Of a stretch of 64,000 nucleotides of DNA, positions 4,004 to 62,518 are shown in pieces. Numbering within the stretch: position 1 is the first letter of the stretch; every line of letters starts with the position of its first letter. This DNA comes from Candidatus Poribacteria bacterium (GTDB taxonomy: Bacteria > Poribacteria > WGA-4E > JAJDTR01): NCBI GenBank assembly GCA_965222225.1, contig CBDCTK010000002.1, forward strand, positions 4,096,001 through 4,160,000, in the 5' to 3' direction. The notes beneath the pieces are model-generated. The model was not told the DNA's origin, did not search any database, and worked only from the letters and a program-made list of their open reading frames with translations. The translations under genes and the position numbers were made by a program.

Positions 4004-4360
4004 ATCTCACAGTGCTGCTATACTCGTGGTACCGTCGTCACTATACCCATGCCGCGCCATTGACACTGGAGGGAACAAGCTTAAAAGTTCTGTTTTTCTC
4101 AAGGCTCACACATGCCGATTATAACATACCAAGATCCAATTATCAATTTACCTAAAATCGAACCGACGAGCTGACACATCTTCAGTTTCTCAATCGCGTA
4201 GCGCTGGTCTTTCACCGTCACCGAGGATGCCGCGGACGAAGGCGGAGTTGCTCATATTCACAATGCTTTGAGGTCGTCGTGAATGTGAACACAATCCGTT
4301 GGCAATACGGTATCTCTGTAGGTATAATATAAATACGACTTACTCAGTAACAGGGGGCCG

Positions 4361-4395
4361 GATCTCTATCGTGCACCTTATTCACTCGCATAATC
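4361..4395 (-). repeat. 35-bp GATC micro-element
   Basis: GATCTCTATCGTGCACCTTATTCACTCGCATAATC, inside a hairpin remnant. Confidence 0.6.
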
Positions 4396-13815: not shown

Positions 13816-13950
13816 AACCGAATCCATAGGATTGACGGTACCTCTAACGTTGGAATGCCTCATAGGCTTGGTGTATAGCGGAATCGAACCGGAGACATCT
13901 TTCGTGTTTCACGCCCCAAATCTCAATCTTTAACACAAAGGAAGTAATCA

Positions 13951-17886: not shown

Positions 17887-17921
17887 GGTATTTATCCAGT
17901 CTCGTAGAGCGGTTGGAAAGA

Positions 17922-17956
17922 GATCTCTGTCGCCCTTGCTGTTCACTCGGTTGATT
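17922..17956 (-). repeat. 35-bp GATC micro-element
   Basis: GATCTCTGTCGCCCTTGCTGTTCACTCGGTTGATT between GCGGTTGGAAAGA and GCCTACC. Confidence 0.7.
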
Positions 17957-20569: not shown

Positions 20570-21478
20570 TTAATCTTCCTCAGCGAGAAAGGTGTCGGGG
20601 TAATACCCGGCATCTGCATAATCAACAAATTTCACACCCGGGTATTTGTTCTTCCACTCTCCCGTGATGAAATCGTCAGTGTCGAATGGCCTAGCCTGCG
20701 ATCCTAATGAAGATACAATCATCCTGAATGTGACGACATTTCCATCTCCATTATCAATAATCTCGTCTGCCCATTGGACATACAGTACATCAGGGTAGAT
20801 AGGATAGACTTTGCCATCGTTGTGTCCGAAAGCGCCATCTATAAAACCGCGTTCTCCCTGATTCCAGAGTTTTATCAAGACACGGCATATCAACTCGTGT
20901 TCGGGCATGTCTCCCTTTTTGTAGCCGGGCATGCCTAACCAGACGGGTATGAGGTGTGAGGGAAAACCTTCGGGAACGGGTGGGAAATCGCTGTTTTCCT
21001 CGGCGGCTTCCTCATCAAGCGCCAGCAACACGGCTTCAAAATCTGTATCATCAAAGTCGTTGTCTTGGCTTAACGACTCTGTGCTGGCGAATTCGAGACT
21101 GGCGGTGGTTGTACTATCCGTTGTAGATTCATCACCGGACGCCTTCGGTGCATAGGCGCGCTTTGGTGGCTGCAAAGCACGCTTGAGGATCTCGGCACGC
21201 TCCGGATTAGGCTTAGGCAAGGCATAAACCGTCTTGGGTTCGACAGGTTGGCTCGCACGCCATACCAAGAATGTACCTAGCGCGACACAAAGCAACACAA
21301 CTAGAACGCCGGCATATAGGCAGTACTTCTTAACGAAAACCATATTAGCTATCGCCCTCCCTATTCGGTCGGTTGATCCTTTCTCACTGAGTGGAATTGA
21401 AGCACCGAGATCCATTAATGACAAATCAACGATTCTCCGCAAAGCAAAGAATCCGGTTTGAGATAACCATCCGTTCAT
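20570..21478 (-). CDS. Hypothetical membrane-anchored protein (real start probably MVFVKKY)
   Basis: Single N-terminal TM, acidic low-complexity linker, globular C-terminal domain (FPPVPEGFP, LIKLWNQG). Confidence 0.6.
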   Translation of the reverse strand: MNGWLSQTGFFALRRIVDLSLMDLGASIPLSEKGSTDRIGRAIANMVFVKKYCLYAGVLVVLLCVALGTFLVWRASQPVEPKTVYALPKPNPERAEILKRALQPPKRAYAPKASGDESTTDSTTTASLEFASTESLSQDNDFDDTDFEAVLLALDEEAAEENSDFPPVPEGFPSHLIPVWLGMPGYKKGDMPEHELICRVLIKLWNQGERGFIDGAFGHNDGKVYPIYPDVLYVQWADEIIDNGDGNVVTFRMIVSSLGSQARPFDTDDFITGEWKNKYPGVKFVDYADAGYYPDTFLAEED

Positions 21479-24557: not shown

Positions 24558-24565
24558 TCTGAAAG

Positions 24566-24600
24566 GATCTCTATCGCCTTCGCTATCCGATCAGTTGATT
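24566..24600 (-). repeat. 35-bp GATC micro-element overlapping a stop codon
   Basis: GATCTCTATCGCCTTCGCTATCCGATCAGTTGATT; contains the TGA of 24591..25553. Confidence 0.75.
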
Positions 24601-34130: not shown

Positions 34131-34253
34131 GATCAAGGGAACGAATAGTGACTGCGATAGAGATCCATGAAGGTATATAGAAACACCAAAACCCCGTGCA
34201 CATAAGCCCCAGCGCGGGATCAAACGAACGAATAGTGAGTGCGATAGAGATTC
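34131..34253 (+). repeat. Two nearby copies of the 35-bp GATC micro-element (34131..34165, 34218..34253)
   Basis: GATCAAGGGAACGAATAGTGACTGCGATAGAGATC and GATCAAACGAACGAATAGTGAGTGCGATAGAGATTC. Confidence 0.8.
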
Positions 34254-34442
34254 CGGCAGGTTGCAAGGTATCAGGAACCGCTTGAGACTTTTTCAATGGT
34301 CAACCAAAAAGACCAAATGTCTAAAATCTCCCCCGCTTTTCTTCAACGCTTGATTGACACCGTTTGTTGTCTCGCTCAAATGTACAAAGTCGATCTAAGT
34401 CCGATTGTAACTTAATCAGGAATTGCGCGATTCGGTTTTATC

Positions 34443-35303: not shown

Positions 35304-36033
35304 TGTCTCGTCTCATCAATCTTATCAACGCAGCCACGGGAAAACCCCTAGCGAGTCAGGTGTCAACTATATATTATCGGTGGGAAAAAAGCAATAGAAA
35401 AATATGTGCTGTAGTGAGTAGCAAAGCAATCCTCCGGTTGTAGTGGATGTAGAAGTGTGTTATGGCTGCGACGAAATCTATTGGTAAGTCCACTTCCGTC
35501 CGGGATTCAGTTGTAGGAGCATTCATGGCTGCGTTGCGGGACTTGAGAGCAACCCTCGGGACGCCTACGGTTTCTTGTGGATCGACTATCATGAACTATG
35601 GTATAATTACAGCGTTTCCGCACAGTAGTCATGTCCTTGAATCGTTAATCATGGAACAGAGCAATCGCTGATTCCTTTCCACTGCTCTTCGAAGTCACAG
35701 TCCATAATGTCCTCGAATCGGTTGGTATTGCCAAGAAATCTACCTGAATTCGCGGCGGATCGAAATGCTTCAAACCAGACTGACGATTTAACCCTCCAAT
35801 GCACCACGCTTTCAGTCACGCTCGATTTGTAAGAAGCCGGATCGATACCCGTCGCTGATTCTCCTCTGCTCAGAAATTAACAAATCAAAGTACCGGGTAA
35901 TGAGGTGCCGTCTTTGTGCACAGTCCCTCCCGTTTCTGAAGCCACGTTTATCTTTCCGGGGTAACTCGGCAGATTAGCATCCGGCTAGCGGTGACCTTTA
36001 CAAGTGATTGCCCCATTTTCGATAGGAGGAATC

Positions 36034-37026
36034 ATGCCGTTAAAATCGAACTACAGACTGCTGTTTTTCGCAGGACTTTTTGCCATTCTATTGACTGAGG
36101 CGATGGTCGCGAGAAACGCGCTCGCCTTCAACACAAGTCGGATTGTTTTTGCATCCCTGAGAGATGGCAACAAGGAAATCTATGTAATGGATGCCGATGG
36201 AGGAAACCAAGAAAACCTGACAAACAATCCAGCGTATGACGGCCAGCCGGATTGGTCCCCTGACGGGACGAAGATTGCATTCGTTTCCCGCCGAGACGGC
36301 GTTTCTCAAATCTACGTAATGAACGCCGATGGAAAGAACCCGATTAGACTGACAGATGGACCGCGGTGGAAGCGGGATCCAGACTGGTCTCCCGATGGGG
36401 GTAAGATTGCATTCACCGTCAACGCAGATTGGAAAAAAGAAGAGTGGTTAGATCATATCGCCGTGATGGATGCTGATGGAAATAATCGTGTGAAGCATGA
36501 AGACCACGCGATGCAGCCATCATGGTCTCCTGATGGGGGTGAGATTGCATTCACATCCTGGAGAGATGATTGGAACTGGGATATTTACGTGATAGGCGCT
36601 GACAGACGGGGGCTTAAAAGGGTGACGCACGATTTAGCGCCTAAATTCAGACCAGCGTTTTCTCCCGACGGGGGACGGATTGCATACATGTCCGAGCACG
36701 AAGGATTCAATCACATCTATGTGGTGGGGGCGGATGGTAGAAATCGGGTGAGGCTTACGCACAATCAAGAGAATCATTTGGACCCCGCATGGTCTACCGA
36801 TGGACAGGCGATTGCATATTATCTCTCGGAGGGCATCTGGCCCGGGAACTTTCGCAGCACGATGCACTTGATGGCCTCCAATGGAAGGTATATTAGGCAA
36901 CTTAGCGATGGCCGTAATGCGCGCGATCTCTACCCCGACATTAGCCCGCTAGGATTTGCTGTGTCCCCAGCCGCGAAGTTTGTCACCATCTGGGGCAAGA
37001 TCAAAATGCTAACATTGGGTCGTTGA
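36034..37026 (+). CDS. Secreted TolB-like PD40-repeat beta-propeller protein 1
   Basis: Signal peptide, repeated PxWSPDGxxIAF, C-terminal VTIWGKIK. GGAGG before ATG 36034. Confidence 0.88.
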   Translation: MPLKSNYRLLFFAGLFAILLTEAMVARNALAFNTSRIVFASLRDGNKEIYVMDADGGNQENLTNNPAYDGQPDWSPDGTKIAFVSRRDGVSQIYVMNADGKNPIRLTDGPRWKRDPDWSPDGGKIAFTVNADWKKEEWLDHIAVMDADGNNRVKHEDHAMQPSWSPDGGEIAFTSWRDDWNWDIYVIGADRRGLKRVTHDLAPKFRPAFSPDGGRIAYMSEHEGFNHIYVVGADGRNRVRLTHNQENHLDPAWSTDGQAIAYYLSEGIWPGNFRSTMHLMASNGRYIRQLSDGRNARDLYPDISPLGFAVSPAAKFVTIWGKIKMLTLGR

Positions 37027-37080
37027 TGATGTGTGCGACGCGGTTGACACATCCGCTTATTTTCAAAATAGGAGGAACAG

Positions 37081-38058
37081 ATGTCATTCACAGCTAGACG
37101 ATTCTTGACTACAATGCTTGTCGTCTCCGTGTTAATCCAGATGCAGTTTGCTAAAAGCGGTTACGCCGCTCAGAGACCCAAGATTGCCTTCAGCTCTACG
37201 AGAGATGGAAACAGCGAAATCTACGTCATGGATATTGACGGACGTAATCATGTAAGACTAACGTATGATCCGGCGATTGACTATGATCCGTCGTGGTCTC
37301 CGAATGGCGATAGGATTGCGTTTGTCTCCAACAGAGACAATGGAGTTGAACAAATCTACGTCTTGGATTCTGACGGACGGAATTTGATGAGACTGACAAA
37401 CGAAGCGGTAAATCGGGAGCCGACGTGGTCTCCCACCGGAGAAAAGATTGCGTACACTCGCAGCAGAGGAGGACGTCAGGTTTGGGTAATGGACGACGAC
37501 GGACAAAACCAGACACGTTTGACTCAAATAGGCAAGAACCTTCACCCAGCCTGGTCGCCTGATGGGGTACGAATTGCCTTCGTATCCGTTAGGGACGGAA
37601 GGACCGGTATATACGCAATGGATAAGAACGGTAATAATCAGGAAAGAATCACCCTACACATGGTGATTCCGGGCCATCCATCGTGGTCTCCCGACGGTAA
37701 ATGGATTGCGTATGAATCTCTTGACGAAGAAAGCAAATTTCAAATCTTTCTCGTGAAAACCGATGGCAGCGGTCTTTCGAAAAGGCTAACACACAATCCA
37801 CCGAATAAATGGCGTCCTGCATGGTCCCCCGATGGCGACACGATTGCCTACGTGTCAGTAGAGCCCTTTCCCTTCCAAAATATGACGATTCACTTGATGA
37901 CTGCCCGTGGAAATCATCTTAAACAACTCAGTGAGGAGCACAATGGTTCGGATAACGATCCCGATTGGTATGCTCCGGTAGGATGGTCGGTGTCTCCCGC
38001 CGCAAACTTCATTACCATGTGGGGCGAGATTAAAAAGCCAACATCGGCTCTCCGTTGA
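37081..38058 (+). CDS. Secreted TolB-like PD40-repeat protein 2
   Basis: WSPDG repeats, C-terminal ITMWGEIK. Confidence 0.88.
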   Translation: MSFTARRFLTTMLVVSVLIQMQFAKSGYAAQRPKIAFSSTRDGNSEIYVMDIDGRNHVRLTYDPAIDYDPSWSPNGDRIAFVSNRDNGVEQIYVLDSDGRNLMRLTNEAVNREPTWSPTGEKIAYTRSRGGRQVWVMDDDGQNQTRLTQIGKNLHPAWSPDGVRIAFVSVRDGRTGIYAMDKNGNNQERITLHMVIPGHPSWSPDGKWIAYESLDEESKFQIFLVKTDGSGLSKRLTHNPPNKWRPAWSPDGDTIAYVSVEPFPFQNMTIHLMTARGNHLKQLSEEHNGSDNDPDWYAPVGWSVSPAANFITMWGEIKKPTSALR

Positions 38059-38108
38059 TGTGTACGGCGCGCTTGAAACTGCAGCTTTTTTTAAAAAAGG
38101 AGGAACAG

Positions 38109-39085
38109 ATGTCATTCAAAGCTAGACAACTGACGGGGACAGCGCTTGTCATCTCCCTGCTAATCCAGATGCACATTGCAGCAAGCAGTTACGCCTCTCG
38201 CAGAACCAAGATAGCCTTCACCTCTACGCGTGACGGGAATACTGAAATTTATGTCATGGATGGTGACGGGAGTAACCAGAGAAGAGTAACGGTAAATCCA
38301 GCAAGTGATGAATATCCGGCATGGTCTCCCGACGGCAAAAAGATTGCCTTTGTTTCCAATAGAAACAACGTAAACAAAGATCACAAGCAAATCTGGGTGA
38401 TCGACGCCGACGGGTAGAACCCGATTAGACTGACGGACGGGTTGGTGGACTCTTATCCGGATTGGTCGCCAGACGGCACGAAAATTGTGTACGACGCCCA
38501 TCTTCATCCAGAGGAACATCATGTAGCCCCCGCCGGGATTACTGTAATGGATGCGGATGGGAACAACAAGAGACTACTTACGGGTGAAGGCGCACATGCG
38601 TCGTGGTCGCCCGATGGAAAACGAATAGCATTTGTCTCCGGTAGAAATGAAAAAGTCAGTCACATTTTCGTAATGGATGCCGACGGACAGAATCAGATAG
38701 AGTTAACGCATGACTTCGTGCATAAACGTCTGCCATCATGGTCACCCGACGGGAAGCGCATCGCGTATGTGGGCGATAACGTGATTTGGGTGGTGGATAG
38801 CGACGGAGCGAACCAGAGGCAACTCACCAATATAATTACGGAAGAACACCCTACATGGTCACCGGACAGTGAATCCATTGCTTTTCACTCTTTTACAAGG
38901 GATCGTGGAACTGGGATTTACATGGTGGATGTAACTAACGGCGCTGTCGACGTTTTGCAAGTTGATCCCGCGTTCTTTAATCTCGACCCGATTGGCTCTA
39001 TCCCGGAGGACTCTCCGTTTCGCCGGAAGGTAGCCGGATTACAATTTGGGGCAGGATGAAGAGTACCGCGCTCAGCCTCCGGTGA
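38109..39085 (+). pseudogene. TolB-like PD40-repeat protein 3, pseudogene; close paralog of 39471..40457
   Basis: TAG at 38415..38417 where the paralog has AAG, and a one-base deletion at ~38990 (CCGATTGG versus CCGGATTGG). Confidence 0.88.
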
Positions 39086-39248
39086 GGGGTGCGCTTGGTC
39101 GGTGGCAGTTAACGTTGTCTGAACTGTGATTCATGAGAATACGGGATTACCTTGATTGTACGTGATTAGTTGCGAGTCATGAGGCGACTATTCCGCATCT
39201 TGCAGCCACTAGGAATTAGGGAAAAAACCTAGTCTATAAGAAAAAAGG

Positions 39249-39391
39249 GATGAACGGAGTGAACAGCGAGTGGGATGGACTATCGCACGGGATTTGCTAT
39301 CGATCAAGTGAGCGAAAAGCGAACGCGATAGCCAGTCTTGCTCCTTATTCAGTCGCTTGATCGATATTCACTCACTTGACCGATAGAGGTC
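39249..39391. repeat. Four-level nest of the 35-bp micro-element in mixed orientations
   Basis: Innermost forward copy 39302..39337, enclosed by two split reverse copies and one split forward copy. Confidence 0.65.
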
Positions 39392-39470
39392 CCTTGCGCT
39401 AAAAACTGTCGGTTGATGTCTAGAATATTGTAATTCGCATATTAATTTTGCTCTGACTAAGGAGGAAAAA

Positions 39471-40457
39471 ATGACATTCAAAGCTAGACGCTTGTCCGTG
39501 GCAGCGCGTGTCATGTCTCTGTTAATACAGATGCACATTGCAGAAAACGGTTACGCCTCTCGCAGAACCAAGATCGCCTTCTCCTCTATGCGTGACGGGA
39601 ATTTGGAAATTTATGTCATGGATGGCGACGGGAGAAACCAGAGAAGAGTAGCGGTAAATCCGGCAAGGGACGAATATCCGGCATGGTCTCCCGACGGGAA
39701 AAAGATTGCGTTTGAATCCAATCGAAACAATGTAAACAAAGATCACAGGCAAATTTGGGTGATCGACGCCGACGGGAAGAACCCGATTCGACTGACGGAC
39801 GGGTTGGTGGACACTCATCCGGATTGGTCGCCAGACGGCACGAAAATTGTGTACGACGCCTATCTTGTTCCAGAGGACCATAATTTAGCACCCGGTGGGA
39901 TTGCTGTAATGGATGCGGATGGGAACAACAAGAGGTTAGTTAAGAATGCAAGAGGCTCACAATCGTCCTGGTCGCCCGATGGAAAACGAATAGCATTTAT
40001 CGCCGGTAAAAATCCTGGTGACGACTCTCAAATTTACGTAATGGATGTCGACGGACGAAATCGGTTGCAGTTAACGCATGACTTTGTGCACAAACGTTTG
40101 CCATCATGGTCACACGACGGGAAGCGCATCGCGTATGGTGGCGACAACGTGATTTGGGTGGTGGATAGCGACGGAGAGAATCCGAGGCAACTCACGTGGC
40201 ATGTTACGGAAGAACACCCTACATGGTCACCGGACAGCGAATCCATCGCGTTTCACTCTTTTGGAAGGGATCCTGGAATTGTTGGGATTTACACGGTGGA
40301 TGTAACTATCGGCGCTGTCGACCCTTTGCCAAGTGATCCCGGCTTCCAGAATTACTATCCGGATTGGCTCTATCCCGGAGGACTCTCCGTTTCGCCGGAA
40401 GGTAGCCAGAATACAATTTGGGGCAGGATAAAGCAATTGGCGGTCAACCTGCGGTAG
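39471..40457 (+). CDS. Secreted TolB-like PD40-repeat protein 4
   Basis: WSPDG repeats, C-terminal NTIWGRIK; AAGGAGG RBS. Confidence 0.88.
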   Translation: MTFKARRLSVAARVMSLLIQMHIAENGYASRRTKIAFSSMRDGNLEIYVMDGDGRNQRRVAVNPARDEYPAWSPDGKKIAFESNRNNVNKDHRQIWVIDADGKNPIRLTDGLVDTHPDWSPDGTKIVYDAYLVPEDHNLAPGGIAVMDADGNNKRLVKNARGSQSSWSPDGKRIAFIAGKNPGDDSQIYVMDVDGRNRLQLTHDFVHKRLPSWSHDGKRIAYGGDNVIWVVDSDGENPRQLTWHVTEEHPTWSPDSESIAFHSFGRDPGIVGIYTVDVTIGAVDPLPSDPGFQNYYPDWLYPGGLSVSPEGSQNTIWGRIKQLAVNLR

Positions 40458-40592
40458 TTTGCACACCGAATCGGTGAAATCGAAGGGATTGCGGCGTGCC
40501 GCTCCGCTACCTAGTTCATTGGTGGTACATCCGTGCGGCAAGCTTACCACATTAAAGGAGGGAGAACATGCGAATCAAGTCGATAAATAAAC

Positions 40593-41392
40593 GAGAGTAT
40601 TCACACAAAGATAGATAAGGCAATCTTCTGATACCGACGGAAGACCTCTGGGTTGGTCAAAGCAGTCCATAACTTCATGGCATTGTCCACCATCTCAAGT
40701 TTCTTGGATACTATTTTGGTGCGGCGTGTGAATCGTCCAAGATGATGGCGTGTATTGCTGTTATCACGTTCGACTGTTGCTGTCCCTGATTTCCCGATGT
40801 GATGACGCTCCGCAGGAAGTACCTTGGCAAACGCTTCCCAATTGTCAGTGTAATACTGGCAATCACTTAAGTGTTTCACTTTGTCGAATAGCCGTCTGAA
40901 GGTATCAGCATCACGACCACCGATAACCCAGGCAACGGTTTTGCCTGTTTCACGAGAAACTGCTTTGTGAATCCATCTTTTGTTTTTTTTGACCCGATAA
41001 AATGCCACATCTCATCAAATTCCAATTCACGGGTATTGATTGGAATCTCAGGCTCCGACAACAGGGCTGCTTCCTTTGCAGGCCATTTTTGAACAGTACT
41101 TGGCGATACATTAAACAAGTTGGCAATAGTGCCGTAAGACGCTTTTGCAAGCGAGTAGAGAATTACTGCAAAAGCACGCTTGATGGTGGTTTGAGGGTTG
41201 GTTCTCTCGTCTCCCTCAACGAAATTATAACCGCACGTTTTACAACGGTATCGCTGTTTGGAACGAACGAATCCGTTTTTCGTGACTTCCGAACTTTGAC
41301 AGTTCTTACAGTTTGACATAATATCTCCTTCCTGACCTTTCTGGTTAGTTAGAAGAATTATATCATAAATCTATCTATATGGCAATACTCTC
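40593..41392 (-). mobile_element. IS1-family insertion sequence (800 bp) in codon 9 of PD40 gene 5
   Basis: Terminal IR GAGAGTATT at both ends; 8-bp TSD AAATAAAC / AAGTAAAC with one mismatch. Confidence 0.88.
40601..41319 (-). CDS. IS1-family transposase (InsA-like 40876..41319 + InsB-like 40601..41008) joined by a programmed -1 frameshift
   Basis: Zn finger CKNC...QRYRCKTC, EFDEMWHF, A8C slippery run at 40982..40990, YTDNW, ERDNSNTRH. Confidence 0.88.
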
Positions 41393-42362
41393 AAGTAAAC
41401 TTCTGTTTTTCATGGGACTATGCACATCCTTGGTGAGTGGGGAGCTATTGGTGGGAACCGGATTTACCTCGCACCACAAACCACAGATTGCATTCACTTC
41501 TATAAAAGATAGGAATGCTGAAATCTATGTGATGGATGCCGATGGAGAAAACCAAATCAGGTTAACAAAACATGTGGCGAGTGACCGTCATCCCTCGTGG
41601 TCTCCCGATGGGGAGCGGATTGCATTCACTTCCAATAGAATTAGTATTGGCGGTGAAATGTACGTGATGGATAGCGATGGAAAGAATCTGATTAGGTTAA
41701 CAAATGGAGAATGGGACACAAATCCAGCGTGGTCTCCTGACGGAAAAAAGATCGCCTTCGAGTCCTCTCCAGCGAAAGGTAATTCTGAGATATACGTGAT
41801 GGATGCCGATGGAAGAAATCAGACCCGACTAACAGATAGTCCGAGGTATGACGGACACCCGTCATGGTCGCCCGACGGTCAAAGGATTGCATTCGTATCG
41901 CAAAGGGGTGGTTTCAGGATTCAAATCTACGTGATGGACAGCAACGGCGAGAATCAGACGAGATTAACACACGATGGCGGGAATAAGCGTGAGCCCTCAT
42001 GGTCTCCTGACGGGCAAAGCATCGCTTTCATGCTCAACAATTTTGCCTCGATTCAAATCTACGTGATGGATAGCGACGGCAAGAATCGGACAAGGTTAAC
42101 AGACGGAAGGCACGACTGGAGTCCAGCTTGGTCGCCGGACGGCGAGATGATTGCATACGAGTCGTGGATAGGGGAAGACTTCCTTAGCAAAATCCACTTG
42201 ATGACTGCCGACGGAATGTACCTCAAACAACTCAGCGACTTGCACGAACGTGGAGATTACGATCCTGACTGGTTTGATCCTGCATCGCTTGGTGTGACTT
42301 CCGTAGGCATCACAATTACAATCTGGGGCAGGATCAAGAGATTAGCGTTGAACCTCCAGTAA
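41379..42362 (+). CDS. TolB-like PD40-repeat protein 5; original start at 40568 cut off by IS1
   Basis: Removing the IS and one TSD gives MRIKSINKLLFFMGL... in frame. The present ATG 41379 lies inside the IS end. C-terminal ITIWGRIK. Confidence 0.8.
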   Translation: MAILSSKLLFFMGLCTSLVSGELLVGTGFTSHHKPQIAFTSIKDRNAEIYVMDADGENQIRLTKHVASDRHPSWSPDGERIAFTSNRISIGGEMYVMDSDGKNLIRLTNGEWDTNPAWSPDGKKIAFESSPAKGNSEIYVMDADGRNQTRLTDSPRYDGHPSWSPDGQRIAFVSQRGGFRIQIYVMDSNGENQTRLTHDGGNKREPSWSPDGQSIAFMLNNFASIQIYVMDSDGKNRTRLTDGRHDWSPAWSPDGEMIAYESWIGEDFLSKIHLMTADGMYLKQLSDLHERGDYDPDWFDPASLGVTSVGITITIWGRIKRLALNLQ

Positions 42363-42542: not shown

Positions 42543-42577
42543 GATCAAAGGAGCGGATAGCGACTGCGATAGAGATC
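42543..42577 (+). repeat. 35-bp GATC micro-element
   Basis: GATCAAAGGAGCGGATAGCGACTGCGATAGAGATC directly after GTAGGG. Confidence 0.8.
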
Positions 42578-42713
42578 TTCTCCAGGCCGAGACTTCATAT
42601 CGCGAGCAGAACTCGCTCCTACAGAAGACGCGCAGTAAATTGCACTACTACAAACTGACCAACGTAAATCCTATATGTAAAATTCTTAGTTATAGCGACT
42701 ATAGTCGAAACCC

Positions 42714-45520: not shown

Positions 45521-46510
45521 ATGGAAATGAATCTCCACGAAATGAAATGCAAAGCCCTGCGGGAAGAAATGAAAAGGCGTGGACTGAAGGGATATTAATC
45601 GTTAAATAAAGCCCAACTCATCCAATATATTTCAACCGGCGTGCACCCGATTCGGCACGTTGCCGAATCTAGTGTGCGGTCGAATAAAAAGGTACAGACA
45701 GTTATTCCAAGAGTTGAGAATCATTCACCTATATCTCCGGCAGCCACGCAGAATGGTTTTCCCATAAACCAAATCTTAGCCGGTGATTGTCTAAATGTAC
45801 TTCCTTCCCTTGCTAGCAATGTTTTTGATTGTTGTATCGCCGATCCCCCGTTCAATATGTCACAAAAAAAAGGATTGGGCTGGGCGTTCAGTTCCCATAT
45901 TACGATGCAGGAAGGGTGGGATATCTTCTCAAAAGACGAATATTCCCAGTTCACACTCGATTGGGTCTCCGAGGTTCTGAGAGTCGTCAAGCCGAACGGG
46001 AATATCTTTGTTTTCGGATCGTTTCACAGTATTTTTACGTTAGGATTTATCCTTCAGAACATATTTGATCGGCGCATTATCACCCAGATTGTATGGTATA
46101 AGCCGAATGCACAGCCCAATATCACCTGTCGCATGTTTACGGAATCAACTGAATTCATTATTTGGGCAGTTAACAATGAGCGTAAAAAGGCAAAAAACTG
46201 GACATTCAATTATCATGAGATGAAGGCGATGAATAATAACAAACAGATGCGAAACATGTGGGAAATCCCGCTGACGAAGCCGTCTGAACGAAAATACGGA
46301 AAACATCCTTCACAGAAACCGCTAGCAGTGGTTGAACGGCTAATTTTGGCGGGCACGAACGAAGACGACCTGATTCTAGATCCGTTTTCCGGAACCGGAA
46401 CAACCGGAATTGGTGCACAAAAGAACAATCGAAAATGGGTGATGATTGAGAAAGAAGAATTCTATAATCAGATTGCTCGACGGCGACTTGAAGAGTTAGC
46501 CGGCGAATAA
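45521..46510 (+). CDS. Beta-class amino-DNA methyltransferase (DpnA/M2.DpnII-like). An N-terminal Rho_N/HeH-like domain is cut off by an in-frame TAA at 45596; the MTase ORF 45641..46510 is intact
   Basis: Motif IV ADPPF precedes motif I DPFSGTGTTG. WYKPNAQPNITCRMFTESTEFIIWA and KQMRNMW...GKHPSQKP resemble DpnA. Confidence 0.88.
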
Positions 46511-46537
46511 TGAGTGTTCATTATAGAGGAGTTTGAC

Positions 46538-47149
46538 ATGCAAAGGCAGGAAGCACTCTCGAAACTGTCAGAGCTTATCAACCAAGACCTGCGTTTTCTT
46601 GCGAATCAATATGAAGTAACGGTTTTCAAGGGAGACAAACCAAATAAGGGTTGGGCATGGCACGTTCTTGAGCGTCATCTTAACTTACCAATCAACTCTG
46701 CTCAAGCACCAAACTTTGGTTCTTGGGAATTGAAGGTAGTTCCTCCGAAGTATCTAAAAAGTGGAAAGTTGACAATCAAGGAAACAATGGCAATTACGAT
46801 GATTGATGCCTACAATGTTGAACATACCGATTTCCAAGATAGCCATCTGTTCACCAAACTCAGGAAACTAATAGTTGCTGCCAGAATCTGGGAGAGTCAG
46901 CAGGAAGAACGATCTGTGCTTCATATTGTGACAACCTTTGACCTTGACAATCCCAAGATATACAGTCAAATTAAAGCGGATTATGATTTAGTCAGAGAGA
47001 CAATCCGCACGAAAGGTTTTTCGGCTTTGACCGGAAAAATGGGGGTATATATTCAACCAAGGACAAAGGGGCCTGGACATGGTAGTATGTCACGAGCGTT
47101 TTACGCAAGAACCACCTTCCTTAAGCAGTTCATTTTTCCGTCGCTTTGA
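46538..47149 (+). CDS. MutH/Sau3AI-family endonuclease
   Basis: NKGWAxHVLE, PNF...ELK, ETMAIT, YIQPRTKG and RAFY follow the MutH pattern. GAGGAG precedes ATG 46538. Confidence 0.8.
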   Translation: MQRQEALSKLSELINQDLRFLANQYEVTVFKGDKPNKGWAWHVLERHLNLPINSAQAPNFGSWELKVVPPKYLKSGKLTIKETMAITMIDAYNVEHTDFQDSHLFTKLRKLIVAARIWESQQEERSVLHIVTTFDLDNPKIYSQIKADYDLVRETIRTKGFSALTGKMGVYIQPRTKGPGHGSMSRAFYARTTFLKQFIFPSL

Positions 47150-47263
47150 AGACATAAAATCCGCGCAAAAACAGATGCGTTGAATTGACAATTAGAACAT
47201 ATTCCGTTTTGAATCACGAGGAATCGCCAACCCTACCAACAGACCGGCGACAAACACTGTACG

Positions 47264-49222
47264 ATGGACACAAAACCAACCTTCCAGACCATTACCCAGA
47301 GTAAAACTTCAACTCCAGTAGATCCTGTAGTAGCGGCGGAGGTTGGTCTAGAGAGGGGCAAAATCGGCAAACTGCATCTGGAGCGGAATGGCGCAGCCAT
47401 CCCACCCTTGTCAACACCGATTTTGTACCCCGTAGTTTCATTCATGACCGGTTCGACGCCGCGCGGCGGGGGTTTGTGGAAGTACCTACTTCGAGATTTC
47501 ATGAAGAACGATGTGCCGATGTTGTCGCAAGTCCTGCACTTTCTGGATTTCCCTATCAACGGTAAGAGTTTGGCGAAATGGCGAAGTAAAACCGTTCGTG
47601 AGTGGTATCGTGAGGTCAATGGACCATACGAAGCGCCGCTCCTGCTCGATTCCGGCGGATTCAAACTGCTTTATAACACGGGGCTAGATCTCTCTGAGTT
47701 CGGCATTAACGCAGAAACGGAAGCGGATGATATACTCGCACTCCAGGACGACATGGGTGGGGACATGATTGCTTCTCTGGACTACCCGCTTCCACCGGGG
47801 CTGGATCGATCGGAAGCCGAAAGGCGGATGAACCGCAGCCTGAAAAATGCCTTTAGGGTAGCGGAATGCATCGCCGATCGCCGTAACCCGCCATATCTGT
47901 ACATCTGTTGTCATGGACAATCCCGGGTTGACATTGAAGAGTACGTCCAGAAGGTTTTTGACAGGCTTCTGGGAGTCTTACCATCGTTTGGACTTGCGGT
48001 TGGCTCTCTCGTACCGCTGCGAGGAAAAAAGGATTCGGAAGTATTGGAGCGGATATTGGGAGTGGTAAACGGAATACCGGAATCGGAGCGACATCGGACG
48101 CCGATTCACGCCTTCGGCGTTTCAGGTGAACTTGCCCCCATACTCGCTTACATGGGAATTGATAGCTTTGACAGCACAAGTTACATTCAAGCTGCTCGCG
48201 GCCTCAACTATTCCCATCCCGAAACGCGGCGGAAGCAGAAAATTATGGAGTTAGACGAAACGGTGTGCACTTGCCGCATCTGCCGCGAGGTGTCGCTTGA
48301 TGAAATGCACCTTGCCCTGTCGGATGCAGTAAGTTATAGGAAGACTTCAACCGGGAAGTACAAGAGCGAATACTATGCCGCCATCGCTTTGCACAACTTT
48401 GAGATGGAAGCGGGGTTACTTTCCCGTATGAAAGAAGCTATTGAGAGCGAAGACTCGCTTGAAGAGTTGGTTCGTCACGCGCAGGTAGGACGAGGCATCA
48501 ATAGAGCAGTAGGCTGGCTGCTTGAGAATGATGAGATTTTTGCCAGTAAGATGGCGAAAACTGTCTTTGAGGCCACCGATTCACGGGGCAAATCCGCCCT
48601 TCCAATTGGGCGGAATCCGTATCAACTCGAACTCTTCACGGGATCCTTGACAGCGGAAGGAAATGGCGAGGAATCGCGATCAATCTCGCTCAATTATACA
48701 CCTGATTCCTTTTCCATTCCCGATGATTATGCTCCCCCTAAGGACAAAGACGTACTGCTGGTTATTCCGTGTGCCGGGAAAAAGCCGTATTCACTGTCGC
48801 GCACACACGCTATTGTCAATACCAAACTTCAGACGGCCTTCGGTGAAGCGGGAACTTCCATCCACAGAATTACCCTTTCGGGACTTTACGGACCCGTGCC
48901 GGAGGAATATGAATCTGAAGAAGCTGTCCTCCGATACGATTTTCAGTTGTCACCGAGAAATACCGCGAAAATACAGCTCGGTGCGGATCGGCTCTGCGCC
49001 TATCTGGAGAAGTATGCCAATCACTACAAGCTGATTGTCGGATACGCGACAAGCCAAGCTTATCGCAAAGTGTTTGAACTCACCCGATCCAGACGGTCAG
49101 ACTTTGTTTTGCTGCCGACGAAACCGAAACAGAATCGACTCACCGAGTTTTTCCGGCACGTTCACCTTGATGAACTCGTTGAGGTTTTGTCAACTGTAGC
49201 GCAACCACTGAGCAAAGAATAA
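47264..49222 (+). CDS. TGT/DpdA-like guanine transglycosylase fused to an ArcS/DUF5591-like C-terminal domain
   Basis: TPILYPV, LDSGGF, SLDYP, HAFG, GIDSFDS, Zn site CTCRIC...LHN. C-terminal VIPCAGKKPYSLSRTH and LSGLYGPVPEEYE...YDF. Confidence 0.85.
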   Translation: MDTKPTFQTITQSKTSTPVDPVVAAEVGLERGKIGKLHLERNGAAIPPLSTPILYPVVSFMTGSTPRGGGLWKYLLRDFMKNDVPMLSQVLHFLDFPINGKSLAKWRSKTVREWYREVNGPYEAPLLLDSGGFKLLYNTGLDLSEFGINAETEADDILALQDDMGGDMIASLDYPLPPGLDRSEAERRMNRSLKNAFRVAECIADRRNPPYLYICCHGQSRVDIEEYVQKVFDRLLGVLPSFGLAVGSLVPLRGKKDSEVLERILGVVNGIPESERHRTPIHAFGVSGELAPILAYMGIDSFDSTSYIQAARGLNYSHPETRRKQKIMELDETVCTCRICREVSLDEMHLALSDAVSYRKTSTGKYKSEYYAAIALHNFEMEAGLLSRMKEAIESEDSLEELVRHAQVGRGINRAVGWLLENDEIFASKMAKTVFEATDSRGKSALPIGRNPYQLELFTGSLTAEGNGEESRSISLNYTPDSFSIPDDYAPPKDKDVLLVIPCAGKKPYSLSRTHAIVNTKLQTAFGEAGTSIHRITLSGLYGPVPEEYESEEAVLRYDFQLSPRNTAKIQLGADRLCAYLEKYANHYKLIVGYATSQAYRKVFELTRSRRSDFVLLPTKPKQNRLTEFFRHVHLDELVEVLSTVAQPLSKE

Positions 49223-58209: not shown

Positions 58210-58436
58210 ATTGGTATCTCCTTTGATGTTATGTATGCCAACAATCGTGTTGACCGAATCATTTTGAGACTGCTTTCGTAAGTCCTATCTATCTAGCAAA
58301 TTACTGCATCCAAAATATCGATCCAATATAGCACGGTGGTGGGTTGCTGTCAATCACATAAAAAACGTAAATCGGAGCAATTGTCTCTATTCATGTGTGG
58401 AAATCCGTTATCTTGCACTCCTAATTCTCCGTAGGG

Positions 58437-58505
58437 GATCAAGTGAGTGAATAGCGAATGATCAACTGAGCGAACAGCGAAGGCGATAGAGTTCCCATAG
58501 AGATC
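58437..58505 (+). repeat. Two-level nest of the 35-bp micro-element inside a GTAG hairpin
   Basis: Inner copy 58460..58494 splits the outer copy into 58437..58459 and 58495..58505. Confidence 0.75.
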
Positions 58506-58659
58506 CCTCCTCGCCCGCTCCCTTTCGGCAGAAATCCCTATATCCAACCACGCCCAGTCCATTGCGAACCACAATCCTGCGAGGCTATATGTAGGGTGCG
58601 CACCGCGCACCAGCCTTTTCGTCGTACTCGCGCGATAGAGTTCCTACCAGCCTTCCTAT

Positions 58660-58835
58660 GCACCCGTAGGAGCGGCCTCGCGGTCTCGCTTGCGCAAGCC
58701 GGAGCGTCTGTCGTGAATATGCAGGTTGCGGGGCGGTGGAAATCCCCTCGGATGCCGGCGCATTATGCCCGCGCCGAGTTGGCAGAGCAAGGAGCAATTG
58801 CACGCTTCAAATACGGGAAAGACGGTGGGGGGTAG
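58660..58835 (+). pseudogene. C-terminal remnant of a Cre-like tyrosine recombinase
   Basis: RSGLAVSLAQAGASVVNMQVAGRWKSPRMPAHYAR contains the box II R...GRW...Y pattern. Confidence 0.7.
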
Positions 58836-59435
58836 CGAACCGGGAAGGATAGTTGAGGGAAAGTACATATGTAGGGTGGGCACTGCCCACCATTTTTCTT
58901 AGGTGCGATTAACCGCCTGTTTAAGCCCGTGGGTTGGGATGAACGAAACCGAGAATTCCGGTGTCGACACACCAAACTTCCTCAAACTGGCTGACCCGTC
59001 GGATAGCATCAAGGAAAGAGTGAAACCCAACTTCACCCCCTACGTCATCGGACACCTCCCCGGCAAACGTTGGGTTTCACTAGGATCACCGAGAATTTAT
59101 TCCGAATAGCGTCCCACAATCGTCGTGTCATGCTTGGTGTTTTTGCTTGTTACCGTTCAACCCAACCTACGCGCTTCCCACCATCTCTTATGGGGTACGA
59201 TAGCCGATCCCGATAGAAATCCCTCAAGCAAACCAGATCGTGGGGGCGAGGTCTCCTCGCCCATTCTGTTGCGCACCCTAATCCCGTGCGGTAGAGCGTC
59301 CATTCCGCCAACCCCACACCTCCGCCACACCAATAAACGGCACATGCTCCTCCCACCGCCGACTCAACCCGCCGTTCCTAATCCACGTAATCCAATAATC
59401 CATCAAGCGAGTGAATAGATCGTGTGACCGAAAAG

Positions 59436-59589
59436 GATCAAGGGCGCGAATAGCGACCGCGATAGAGATCCGCCATGTCTGTCGCAAACCGATAGCCCCG
59501 TCTTGCACTCCAGCTGAGAACAAGCGACTGAATGAGGAGTGATCGAACCAATGGACACTGAATACGATAGGGAATCCTGATAGTATTTC
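59436..59589 (+). repeat. Micro-element copy (59436..59470) and a degenerate two-level nest (59518..59589)
   Basis: GATCAAGGGCGCGAATAGCGACCGCGATAGAGATC; inner degenerate copy 59541..59576. Confidence 0.65.
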
Positions 59590-59728
59590 CCACTGCGATG
59601 GAGTTCTTAAAATGAAGTTAAACGTCGCGCCTTGCACTCCAGCGGAGTGCGATGTCGATAGAACTGCAATGCGTACAATCTTCGCGCTCCAAAGGAGCGC
59701 AATGTCGGTAGGATGGCGATTCGATAAG

Positions 59729-59900
59729 GATCAAACGAGTGAACAGTGGTCTCCGTAGGGGCGCGATCAACTGACTAGATAAGGAAGGATCAAGTAAGTG
59801 AATAACGATCAACCGACTGATTAGGGAGGACGATAGTAGATTCTGCGCGATAGAATTCCTATAGAGATCCCCCCGCGCCCAATCCCGCGCGATAGATTTC
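59729..59900 (+). repeat. Four-level nest of the micro-element including a split GTAG hairpin
   Basis: Four GATCAA left ends (59729, 59765, 59788, 59807) followed by four right ends (ending 59843, 59858, 59869, 59900). Confidence 0.7.
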
Positions 59901-61269
59901 TCATAGCAATCACGACCGGGTTTCCATGACGGCCTGACTTCCAACAGCAAATCGAATCTTCCTCTTTATAGCCAAACGCCCTGCAGTAGTTCTATTTGCT
60001 TGTTCGCTTTCCTCGGTGCTATACTTGCCACGCTATTCTACTTCGGTACAATAGCTGTTGTCAAATAAGCGATAGAGCAATTTAGCGCCATCGTCGGTTT
60101 CACGAGGCGCGCTGCTGACAGAAATCGAACCCAATGTGTCTTATCATACGTTCTATCGACTAATCGACTCCCGCGGCAAAACCAATCCGTGAAGGAAAAA
60201 ACTTGAGAATTGAAAACGTCGACTTTCCCAAACCGTTGATAGAAGCCTTGCATGACAACGAACTCGTAGTGTTCGCTGGGGCTGGCGTTTCAATCGGTAA
60301 ACCTGCCCGTCTGCCCAGTTTCAGATCGTTGACCAATATTATCGCCGAAGGTACCGGGAAAACGGCGCGCGATGGCGAGACGCCTGAGCAATTCCTCGGA
60401 AGATTAAAAGACCAAGGCGTAAAAGTGCATGTGCGCGCTGCGCGACCGCTTTCTCAAGAAGGTTTGCAGGCTACGGCCCTTCATCAAGATCTTCTTAGAC
60501 TCTATCCTAAAACAGCGCCCGTTCGCCTCGTCACCACTAATTTCGATCCCCTGTTTGAGCAGGCAGCCTTTGAGCAGGCAGCCGAGGAAATATTCGACAG
60601 TTCGCCAGAAGTATTCCGGGCACCCGCGCTGCCTTTGGGACGTGAGTTCGACGGCATTGTTCATGTTCACGGTTCAGTCCGTCGCCCTAACGAGATGTTA
60701 CTTACGGATAGAGATTTTGCTCGCGCTTATCTGACCGATGGCTGGGCTCGACGCTTTCTCGTCGAACTTTTCAGTAATTTCCGAATCCTCTTTGTTGGCT
60801 ACAGTCATGACGACACGATTATGAATTATCTGGCCCGCGCGCTTCCTGCCGGTTCGGAATACCAACGTTTCATTTTGACCGGTTCCGAAGACAAGAAACC
60901 CTCTGATGATTGGCGTTCACTAGGGATTGAACCGATAGTCTACCCTCAGGCTAACGAAAATGACTATAGTGAACTCGACACAAGCATTCATGGCCTCGCC
61001 GAACTTGTACAGCGACGCGTTGTTGTTTGGAATGATGAAATAACCAATATAGCGCAAGTTCCGCCTCCCACTGACGAGAATAAGGCAGATCTCATTGAGT
61101 ACGCGCTAAGCGATGAAGTAAACACAAGGTTCTTTGCAAAAGCGGCTTCAGATCCTGATTGGATTGACTGGCTCGACGAGCGTGGACATTTGACCGCGCT
61201 ATTCCGCGACGATATACTCACCGCGCAAGCCAAAACCTTGTCTTGGTGGTTGGCAGATCGATTTCTTTT

Positions 61270-62518
61270 CGGAATTAGTAGCTTGTAGCTTTTAGACTGA
61301 CGACAAACATAAAACTTGGTACCCTGTCGTAAATCTTTTCGTCACACGTAGATGTCCATAGTGACTATTCTTCTCGTAGGAGTTTGCTATGGACATTTTG
61401 AATCTTATGAAAGAGTTTCCAAATCAAGAATCTTGTCTCAGATTTATAGAGGAAAAACGTTGGAAGGACGGTGTTTGCTGTATCCACTGTGGCAGTGAAA
61501 AAGTTGGACGCAAGAACAAAAACGACATTACTACTGGTTGGAATTGCTACGATTGTGAATCTAGCTTTTCGGCTACAGCAGGAACCATCTTCCATGGTAC
61601 CAAGATACCTCTCCAGAAATGGTTTTTGGCTATCTCAATTCTTTCCAATGCCAAGAAAAGCATATCGAGTTGTCAGCTTGCTCGTGACTTGGACATGAAT
61701 CAAAAGTCCGCTTGGTATATGGCAATGCGCCTCCGTGAGAAAATGAGTGATAGTGATGAATTGCTGAAAGGGATAGTTGAAGCGGACGAAACCTATGTCG
61801 GCGGCAAACCCAGAGCAAAATCTAAGAGAGGTAGAGGCACAAATAAATCTCCCGTCATCGGCGTAGTCGAGAGAGGCGGTCGGGTGGTTGCTAAATTCAT
61901 GAAGGTTCTATCTGGTGAAAATATCAGAGAATTCATCCTTAGCAATGTCTCACCCGATGAGTCTATTCTTATGACTGATGAATTTCGCTCTTACAATAGT
62001 CTGGACGAAGATATCGAAAGACATGTTATCCATCACCAAGAGAGATATGTTTCTGAGGACGGCGTAACTCACACCAACACCATCGAGTCGTTTTGGGCTT
62101 GTGTCAAGAGGTCATTCTACGGAACGCATCATCACTACAGCAAGAAGTGGCTGCCACTGTATATCATGGAGTCTTGCTGGAAATATAATCGCAGAAAAGA
62201 TGATGAGATTTTCATAAGATTTTTTGATGAATGCTTCACCTGAGCCACATGAATTGTTTGGCTATCGGTATATTCTGTCAACGACAACATCATGGTGTGC
62301 TGAAAATCCCATAGTGTTGGAAATTAAAATCCCGCAGATAACCCGCAATGCTCCCGCGAGCATGTACAAACGCTTGGTCAACATGATATGCCTCCATTTC
62401 TCTCTTATAGAGATGTATTTTAGTGTGAATCAAGATTCCGAACACTGTCTAAAATGATTGTACATTAAGAAGAGAAAAGCAAGCAAATCGACCAAAAAGC
62501 AGTTAACTACTAAGTCCC
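61270..62518 (+). mobile_element. IS1595-family insertion sequence, copy 2 (1249 bp)
   Basis: Perfect 8-bp TSD TTTCTTTT at 61262..61269 and 62519..62526. Confidence 0.95.
61389..62243 (+). CDS. IS1595-family DDE transposase
   Basis: Translation identical to 1304..2158. Confidence 0.93.
   Translation: MDILNLMKEFPNQESCLRFIEEKRWKDGVCCIHCGSEKVGRKNKNDITTGWNCYDCESSFSATAGTIFHGTKIPLQKWFLAISILSNAKKSISSCQLARDLDMNQKSAWYMAMRLREKMSDSDELLKGIVEADETYVGGKPRAKSKRGRGTNKSPVIGVVERGGRVVAKFMKVLSGENIREFILSNVSPDESILMTDEFRSYNSLDEDIERHVIHHQERYVSEDGVTHTNTIESFWACVKRSFYGTHHHYSKKWLPLYIMESCWKYNRRKDDEIFIRFFDECFT

Follow-up and report, generated by a model that had tools for sequence, protein, structure and literature searches.

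How repeats of less than 50 nt spread in bacteria is an open question. The small dispersed repeats (SDRs) of cyanobacteria described by Elhai et al. 2008 reportedly fall in the range 21–27 nt, belong to the Nostocaceae, lack terminal repeats and have a structure inferred from compensatory changes. One of them, SDR5, is 21 nt long and inserts precisely into the short palindromic site HIP1 (PMC5861425, PMC4390886, PMC13756078, PMC3116915), and its function is given as not known (PMC13756078). We have analyzed a 64,000-nt stretch of DNA from a Candidatus Poribacteria bacterium (contig CBDCTK010000002.1, positions 4,096,001 to 4,160,000, referred to as the window), in which a unit of 36 or 37 nt is found inside copies of itself and inside repetitive extragenic palindromes (REPs).

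The dissemination of REPs is itself described as poorly understood (PMC8266576). According to the same source, TnpA-REP of Escherichia coli recognizes the single-stranded REP and not its complement, and needs mismatches in the stem. It acts on the GTAG strand only, cutting 5′ or 3′ of the hairpin, with junctions at C|T or C|A (PMC8266576). Miniature inverted-repeat transposable elements (MITEs) are 70–300 bp long, with terminal inverted repeats of 15–30 bp and target duplications (PMC3184786, PMC3733652).

Structure of the nest at positions 59729–59913

The original prediction read positions 59729–59900 as four left ends followed by four right ends. All eight are present, and the GTAG hairpin lies where it had been placed. 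The order is four left ends with the start of the hairpin within them, one intact unit, three right ends, the other arm of the hairpin and a fourth right end. The parts are as follows.

59730..59746, + strand: left part of the outer copy (layer 1), unit positions 2–18, with G59729 as its target base; left-part score 26.3 bits
59747..59765, + strand: 5′ flank, GTAG (59755–59758) and 5′ arm of the REP, with G59765 as the target base of layer 2; the intact REP is found in three other Poribacteria genomes
59766..59788, + strand: left part of layer 2 to position 24, with G59788 as the target base of layer 3; rebuilt unit 44.9 bits, 4/4 stem pairs
59789..59807, + strand: left part of layer 3 to position 20, with G59807 as the target base of layer 4; rebuilt unit 47.9 bits, pairs 7–23 and 8–22 restored across the junction
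59808..59844, + strand: layer 4, innermost and youngest, an intact 37-nt unit with a long tail that deleted 1 host base; 44.6 bits, covariance model (CM) 35.7 bits, E 1e-7
59845..59860, + strand: right part of layer 3, short tail, a 36-nt unit that deleted 2 bases of layer 2; from stepwise excision
59861..59871, + strand: right remainder of layer 2, short tail, a unit that deleted 3 REP loop bases; from stepwise excision and comparison with the intact REP
59872..59888, + strand: 3′ arm and 3′ flank of the REP; from comparison with the intact REP
59889..59902, + strand: right end probably of layer 1 (positions 24–37), a less certain assignment; 14.6 bits, one of two cross pairs mismatched
59903..59913, + strand: possible fifth, orphan right remainder without a matching left part; weak at 8.3 bits

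The nest was excised stepwise and scored with a position weight matrix (PWM) from whose training the window copies had been left out. The innermost unit (59808–59844) sits after position 20 of 59789–59860 with loss of 1 host base, and this second unit sits after position 24 of 59766–59871 with loss of 2. A refill scan gave the same numbers, only 1 and 2 unknown bases restoring these two hosts. The third unit sits in the GTAG REP, which has lost 3 loop bases relative to its intact, empty form in OZ244829.1, OZ246960.1 and a JAPPIK01 contig. Against the 44.6–47.9 bits of these units, 5000 shuffles of the 173-nt region reached a maximum of 0.3 bits, and 20 Markov-shuffled 64-kb windows contained no units. 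The outcome that would have overturned the original prediction, reconstructed units no better than shuffled sequence, thus did not occur. The stems differ between all the layers and every junction follows the rule of the family, with G59807, G59788 and G59765 being target and not unit bases. The original prediction was right as to the nest and off by 1–3 nt as to its boundaries; the first excision proposed, 59807..59843, should read 59808–59844. The 34 bp taken as the unit length is in fact what the most frequent event adds on balance.

After excision of the REP unit the outermost copy reaches 42.5 bits, and of the 127,970 positions in the window only 17 have a right end as good as the one assigned to it. 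Two pairs can be tested across its junction; 8–22 pairs, but 7–23 is an A–C mismatch, and for this reason it is not proven that both halves belong to a single copy. The proposal that the hairpin splits a fourth copy is plausible, and weaker than the assignment of the three inner layers. The nest is a genuine stack of unit copies and a record of three insertions, the outermost being the oldest. The REP unit probably landed in an older copy before those three events.

Nesting and insertion in other Poribacteria loci

A genome-wide excise-and-rematch procedure had been suggested, and we applied such peeling to 1.37 Mb, comprising 1.31 Mb of merged Poribacteria loci plus the window. The loci are centered on matches to the unit, so densities are inflated. 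Nesting is general. There are 534 units, of which 132 lie inside another, with depths of 2, 3, 4 and 5 occurring 104, 24, 2 and 1 times. On the same strand the insertions occupy host positions 24 (55 cases), 18 (17), 20 (10), 2 (8), 19 (8), 11 (5), 13 (5) and 22 (2), and the 22 on the opposite strand are at position 25. The original prediction placed the insertions of its nest at about nt 19–26 of the host and raised the question of a preferred target; there are preferred positions, namely 24, 18 and 20 on the same strand and 25 on the other.

Empty alleles were sought for 366 intact copies. Candidates were found for 132, with clean margins in 81, of which 75 were unique. The unit starts at ATC, the preceding G belongs to the target, and mostly 1–3 target bases are replaced; all 75 unique comparisons show base replacement and not target-site duplication. 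Six comparisons that seem to show an overlap are cases in which the unit landed right at the beginning of another copy. One filled/empty pair within a single genome is 95% identical over ∼180 nt and differs by the unit in place of two bases. Cross-genome totals of 74 and 66 empty alleles contain self-matches and poor alignments, and were not used as counts.

Could the unit be immobile, with nests arising by local slippage, tandem duplication or gene conversion, or be a binding site for a host protein? Slippage does act on nests after insertion. There are extra right ends at locus L029, the right end of the host is missing from seven site-24 nests, and the inner tail at site 24 equals the host tail in 0 of 38 cases where 5.0 are expected (P ∼ 0.003). 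Some copies have also multiplied along with REP arrays. Yet each layer of the nest at 59729–59913 has different stems, all 55 inner/host pairs at site 24 are distinct (in 10 genomes), and the 22 opposite-strand insertions are impossible by tandem duplication. Moreover the halves of 45 hosts re-pair across the junction at 88 of 103 stem pairs compared with 60.6 under the null (maximum 78 in 2000 draws), using a host score threshold that ignores pairing, and clean empty alleles exist. Immobility is thus largely refuted, and we give it scarcely any credence. Movement of whole nests as composites was also considered; it is ruled out at site 24, and nearly so at the opposite-strand site, where 21 of 22 pairs are distinct. 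These results bear out the successive insertions, mobility and readable order of events originally proposed, and we have very little doubt that the unit is mobile and nested.

The unit begins ATCAA and ends NN(N)ATCYY, i.e. with a 2- or 3-base spacer before ATCYY. Its length is coupled to the number of bases removed. Among the 132 nested events, 36-nt units deleted 2 nt in 53 of 71 cases and 37-nt units deleted 1 nt in 52 of 61, so that length plus deletion is usually 38 and the net gain is +34 to +36 bp. The target base is G for 428 of the 534 units, A for 60 and C for 40. The tail is nearly unlinked to the hairpin core, yet tracks the class of target. Where identical cores occupy different sites, a long tail is matched by another long one in 6 of 25 comparisons, compared with 918 of 4307; this test of linkage is weak because identical cores are only four times commoner than under independence (99 versus 24.5). 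The tail ATC keeps its A in 12 of 38 cases at site 24, compared with 312 of 337 elsewhere. In a variant with AGCAA, mostly found after C, position 27 is G in all eight copies where it is visible; these may be a single lineage. Two ideas about the tail were set aside. Complementarity of tail and target as a guide is unsupported within site 24 (z ≤ 2.3 among many comparisons), and the final two bases of the tail are not copies of target bases.

The fixed sum of 38 suggests a geometric ruler unlike that of a known transposase. Together with the small target deletions, the lack of duplication and the use of hairpin repeats as targets, this would suit another, uncharacterized enzyme, or host repair, that captures the folded oligonucleotide where REP-like hairpins have been nicked or broken by, for instance, a RAYT (REP-associated tyrosine transposase) or a structure-specific nuclease. 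Plain repair, however, gives no fixed orientation, target G or exact ends, and the ORFs (open reading frames) of the fetched loci yielded no candidate gene. We regard such capture as improbable.

A hairpin conserved on one strand

Among 354 unique copies the most strongly covarying columns are 11–19, 8–22, 7–23 and 12–18, with two or three Watson–Crick pair types in nearly every genome. Watson–Crick pairing is 92%, 92%, 71% (plus 21% G–T) and 68% (plus 28% G–T), compared with 40, 46, 32 and 45% expected, and this holds in every genome. The pairs flank an invariant tandem G–A/G–A at 9–10/20–21, and enclose a loop G-R-A-Y-A; a short tail ending ATCYY follows. Tandem G–A pairs are stable in a Y-GA-R context. 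A base stem 2–4/26–28 is possible, and is invariant, so that it offers no test by covariation. A formal count was made on 97 of 168 distinct cores, the paired columns having been masked during their selection. Paired cells were 95.9% compared with 76.5% on shuffling, and covariation was 0.593 compared with 0.199; none of 500 shuffles equaled the data, and slid controls gave at most 0.111.

G–T is tolerated on the purine-rich strand only, which identifies that strand as the one that folds. The fold is no more stable than shuffled sequences (z −0.1 to −1.3), and pairing without unusual stability fits recognition rather than stability. Conservation of the fold on one strand, with covariation around tandem G–A pairs, is new here; the original prediction did not contain it.

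Some of these features would suit an RNA. A hairpin might be processed from read-through transcripts and returned to DNA by a reverse transcriptase of the host, in the manner of a short interspersed nuclear element (SINE)-like retroposon, with the tail and the loss of 1–3 nt made at integration. ViennaRNA recovers the exact covariation fold in 2 of 3 copies with RNA parameters and in 0 of 3 with DNA parameters, a result that counts against a DNA mechanism, although the DNA set may under-rate G–A pairs. There are G–T wobbles at the outer pairs, and the loop resembles a GNRA-like pentaloop. A tail unlinked to the core that follows the target class looks as if it were set at insertion. Lastly, units between co-directional genes are slightly biased to the sense orientation (113 versus 79), but this bias is weak because the copies are not independent. 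Other evidence is less favorable. Motif screens of 1,201 ORFs (∼1.3 Mb, 11 genomes; eight of the ORFs scanned against Pfam) for reverse transcriptase, Cas1, TnpB, Rpn and tyrosine recombinase gave no convincing candidate. No Rfam model matched the window at gathering score, the only matches in 58300–60000 being chance ones with E up to 5. Both ends of the unit are precise, and the RNA route leaves one-strand targeting beside GTAG unexplained. It is a close rival to movement as single-stranded DNA (below), and on balance unlikely. Integron attC sites, K-turns and group II intron domain V were weighed by their consensus features and then dropped.

Target sites and strand specificity

Insertion of the element into the GTAG hairpin, as originally predicted, has strong support. 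GTAG lies upstream on the same strand for 133 of 396 outermost units, mostly 1, 3, 5 or 6 bases away, while its complement lies downstream for 14, nine of which also have GTAG upstream. Enrichment within 8 nt of GTAG is 8.8-fold. In three palindrome families one strand only is used (20 versus 0, 9 versus 0 and 22 versus 0, with three further degenerate cases), which may in part be a plain preference for purines upstream. A 78-fold enrichment calculated for two palindrome families is not relied on, as the patterns were composed after inspection of the data. The target motif itself is weak, being purine-rich and then G. Units also target their own kind, 116 of 455 lying inside another, an enrichment of ∼5-fold given that the unit accounts for 5.1% of the non-ORF DNA in these loci, which are enriched for it. 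Long ORFs contain only 10 of 339 units, and several of the ORFs concerned seem spurious.

The converse event, insertion of the hairpin into the element, is possible, and far rarer than insertion of the unit into REPs. Thirteen cases of orphan left plus right parts were found, and only that at 59729–59913 has a REP hairpin inside. The same REP is within a unit in one more case in OZ244829.1 (two duplicated copies) and in a doubtful one in CAXXCS.

At least eight GTAG REP families occur together in the Poribacteria loci, often within longer composite repeats of 150–200 nt. Locus L088, with L085–L090 (OZ244829.1 4,706,268–4,714,422), is a hot spot where REP and palindrome arrays adjoin a RAYT gene and many filled copies lie next to empty ones.

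Candidate mobilizing enzymes

Y1_Tnp genes of two types are present in the fetched loci. A candidate RAYT with DHLH and YIHYNP motifs is accompanied by GTAG REPs at L029 (15225–15800, + strand) and also at L088, where units sit in REPs flanking the RAYT. Two TnpA proteins, 73% identical and with a Y---Q--HH signature, are encoded at L006 and L029. The candidate RAYT and TnpA match subclasses 2.2 and 1.2 in the table of PMC6006769. The subclass-1.2-like genes (L006:9241–9702, + strand; L029:17799–18278, − strand) are flanked by CTCC-loop-GGAG palindromes. These are dispersed genome-wide (87 intact copies), and occur in the window at ∼59503, 59632 and 58413; PMC6006769 lists no REP-like repeats for subclass 1.2.

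Mobility, exact ends, strand-specific fold and targeting, lack of duplication and a small deletion are established by the comparative record. As to mechanism, the unit is most likely a very small non-autonomous element whose fold would be recognized on a single strand by a Y1/HUH transposase acting in trans, which would account for conservation of the fold. The enzyme would most likely be provided by the host, as a RAYT (TnpA-REP) or a subclass-1.2-like TnpA. It would cut the unit from single-stranded DNA, and join it to single strands folded into hairpins at which such enzymes are already present, so that the unit would be a parasite of the REP system. Insertion itself is strand-specific and 3′ of the target G, and removes 1–3 bases without duplication. 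Taken as a whole, HUH step included, this account is tentative, with a chance that we judge to be slightly short of even.

Several observations weigh against it, in addition to the ViennaRNA result. Loss of target bases is not known to be part of IS200/IS605 transposition, while the unit removes 1–3 nt. The unit lacks a GTAG guide at its 5′ side, and it joins the target after G, not at C|T or C|A. At the four Y1 genes or fragments in ∼1.3 Mb of 11 genomes, units are inside the associated REPs or palindromes and never form the gene's own ends. Non-REP targets are used too. A leading/lagging bias assessed by local GC skew was not found (117 versus 130, p 0.45), in what is a weak test. Most of the empty alleles are paralogous repeats rather than proven orthologous sites, and the Poribacteria contig CAXXCS010000004.1, a potential source of orthologous empty sites, has intergenic DNA too diverged for calls.

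A more radical reading is that of a new mode of transposition. The 29-nt core containing the tandem G–A hairpin would be the heritable replicator, and the 7–8 nt tail would be written or reshaped at each integration. A ruler would couple insert length to bases removed (the sum usually 38), and position 27 would help to choose the target base, as A with G targets and as G with C targets in the AGCAA variant. We think this rather unlikely.

Comparison with known systems

Cyanobacterial SDRs appear to be the closest known system. Like them the unit is a very small, lineage-restricted, dispersed mobile repeat without a known enzyme, and its structure is kept by compensatory change. It is outside their range of 21–27 nt and the Nostocaceae, and is not in HIP1 as SDR5 is. 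It has 36/37 nt against the 21 nt of SDR5, resides in Poribacteria, targets GTAG REPs, other palindromes and itself, and deletes 1–3 target bases. The unit behaves like a cyanobacterial SDR with REP-like recognition, yet departs from REPs, MITEs, IS200/IS605 derivatives and SDR5 in features that define them.

The resemblance to REPs, and to REPIN–RAYT systems, is also considerable (PMC8266576, PMC6006769, PMC3733652). The unit is a short, intergenic, high-copy hairpin in the 20–50 nt range, formed by a single strand with conserved mismatches and strand-specific, and the host has RAYT genes. But column frequencies over 531 copies reveal no GTAG or CGTC tag 5′ of the palindrome. There is no C|T junction, the units are not inverted dimers, and at the four Y1 genes or fragments mentioned above they do not flank a cognate RAYT as in a REPtron; rather, they parasitize REPs.

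IS200/IS605 ends and their non-autonomous derivatives, known as palindrome-associated transposable elements (PATEs), share with the unit strand specificity, a lack of target duplication and an imperfect hairpin as the likely recognition signal. The unit differs in being one hairpin and not two ends, in its weak target motif in place of a fixed tetra- or pentanucleotide, and in an insertion that is not lossless. MITEs are likewise non-coding, dispersed and mobilized in trans. The unit has at most a 4–6 bp palindromic match that needs a target base, well removed from their 15–30 bp terminal inverted repeats, and makes no target-site duplication. GC42 clusters of yeast mitochondria are ∼40 nt with a constrained structure, and may likewise move by a DNA or an RNA route; they are organellar, generate target duplications and have conserved stems with variable loops, whereas the stems of the unit vary in pairs and its mismatches are invariant (PMC4478555). 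The copies are dispersed or nested and their variable positions pair with each other, unlike the regularly spaced tandem repeats and spacers of CRISPR or TIGR arrays.

Distribution and other copies in the window

A scan of GTDB gave at least 121 loci; among the matches listed, 114 are from 11 Poribacteria metagenome-assembled genomes and seven from other taxa. The scan used an exact pattern, which rare or divergent relatives could escape. The seven were rejected as chance matches (PWM at most 17.1 bits; one CM match, 12 bits, E 0.46). A single 61-nt query each against phages and plasmids, a search of low sensitivity, gave no match. Peeling found 18 units in the window, and 11 intact copies have CM E < 1e-6 (four of these in the training set). 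Those outside the nest at 59729–59913 are as follows.

4359..4394, − strand: degenerate single unit, 31.9 bits
11402..11437, − strand: single unit in a GTAG REP, with an empty relative of the site in OZ240209.1 (81% over 159 nt); peeling
17920..17955, − strand: single unit just 3′ of GTAG; peeling and CM
21341..21377, − strand: single 37-nt unit, tail running into a probable start codon; peeling
24564..24599, − strand: single unit overlapping the 3′ end of a 2-hydroxyacid dehydrogenase gene; peeling
34132..34167, + strand: single unit; peeling and CM
34219..34254, + strand: single unit in an AAGCCCC-type palindrome; peeling
39250..39393, both strands: four-layer nest with alternating strands, 39303–39339 (+), 39289–39361 (−), 39272–39380 (−) and 39250–39393 (+); peeling
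42544..42579, + strand: single unit just 3′ of GTAG; peeling and CM
58438..58507, + strand: two-layer nest, the inner unit (58461–58496) at host position 24, inside another GTAG REP; peeling, with an intact relative of that REP at ∼59243
59437..59472, + strand: single unit with orphan left parts ahead of it (from 59402); peeling

The nest at 39250–39393 is at least as deep as that at 59729–59913. Positions 13920–35420 (∼21 kb) are syntenic with CAXXCS010000004.1 at 82–88% identity. Near 15.6 kb of that contig a unit follows the same left flank as the unit at 21341–21377, and the stems and tails of the two differ; they represent independent insertions or a replacement. The unit at 21341–21377 may supply a ribosome-binding site. 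The left end of that at 24564–24599 covers the last codons and stop of the dehydrogenase gene, and in the relative a few similar bases persist while the remainder of the unit is absent.

Other features of the window are noted briefly. Two IS1595 (ISXO2-like) copies at 1182–2158 and 61267–62243 are identical over at least 300 nt, and the latter truncates a SIR2-like gene at 60203–61288. At ∼58720–58835 (+ strand) a short remnant resembles the C-terminus of a tyrosine recombinase by eye, with no Pfam match. A DNA methylase, a MutH-like nuclease and a TGT-family gene with DUF5591 adjoin at 45641–49222, which suggests a restriction or DNA-modification island. Positions 36004–42362 contain a cluster of PD40 beta-propeller genes with a common C-terminal motif, one copy having an in-frame stop near 38414.

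Discussion

The element is a very small mobile repeat with unusually well-defined rules, previously undescribed in the literature searched; that search, whose coverage excluded subscription papers, returned no description of it. To the question of how repeats under 50 nt spread, the record assembled here brings hundreds of copies, exact ends, a structure defined by covariation, junction rules and time-ordered nests. With two short enzymes as candidates in these genomes and a substrate of 36 nt, the system is open to direct tests in vitro.

For the Poribacteria, an element that occupies ∼5% of non-ORF DNA in these enriched loci reshapes the intergenic regions, and its nests can date expansions of REPs and other repeats. 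If the new mode of transposition were true, the unit would rank with the smallest known selfish elements. It would be a hyperparasite of the REP/RAYT system that might move as RNA, and could point to an insertion chemistry that is compact and can be retargeted.
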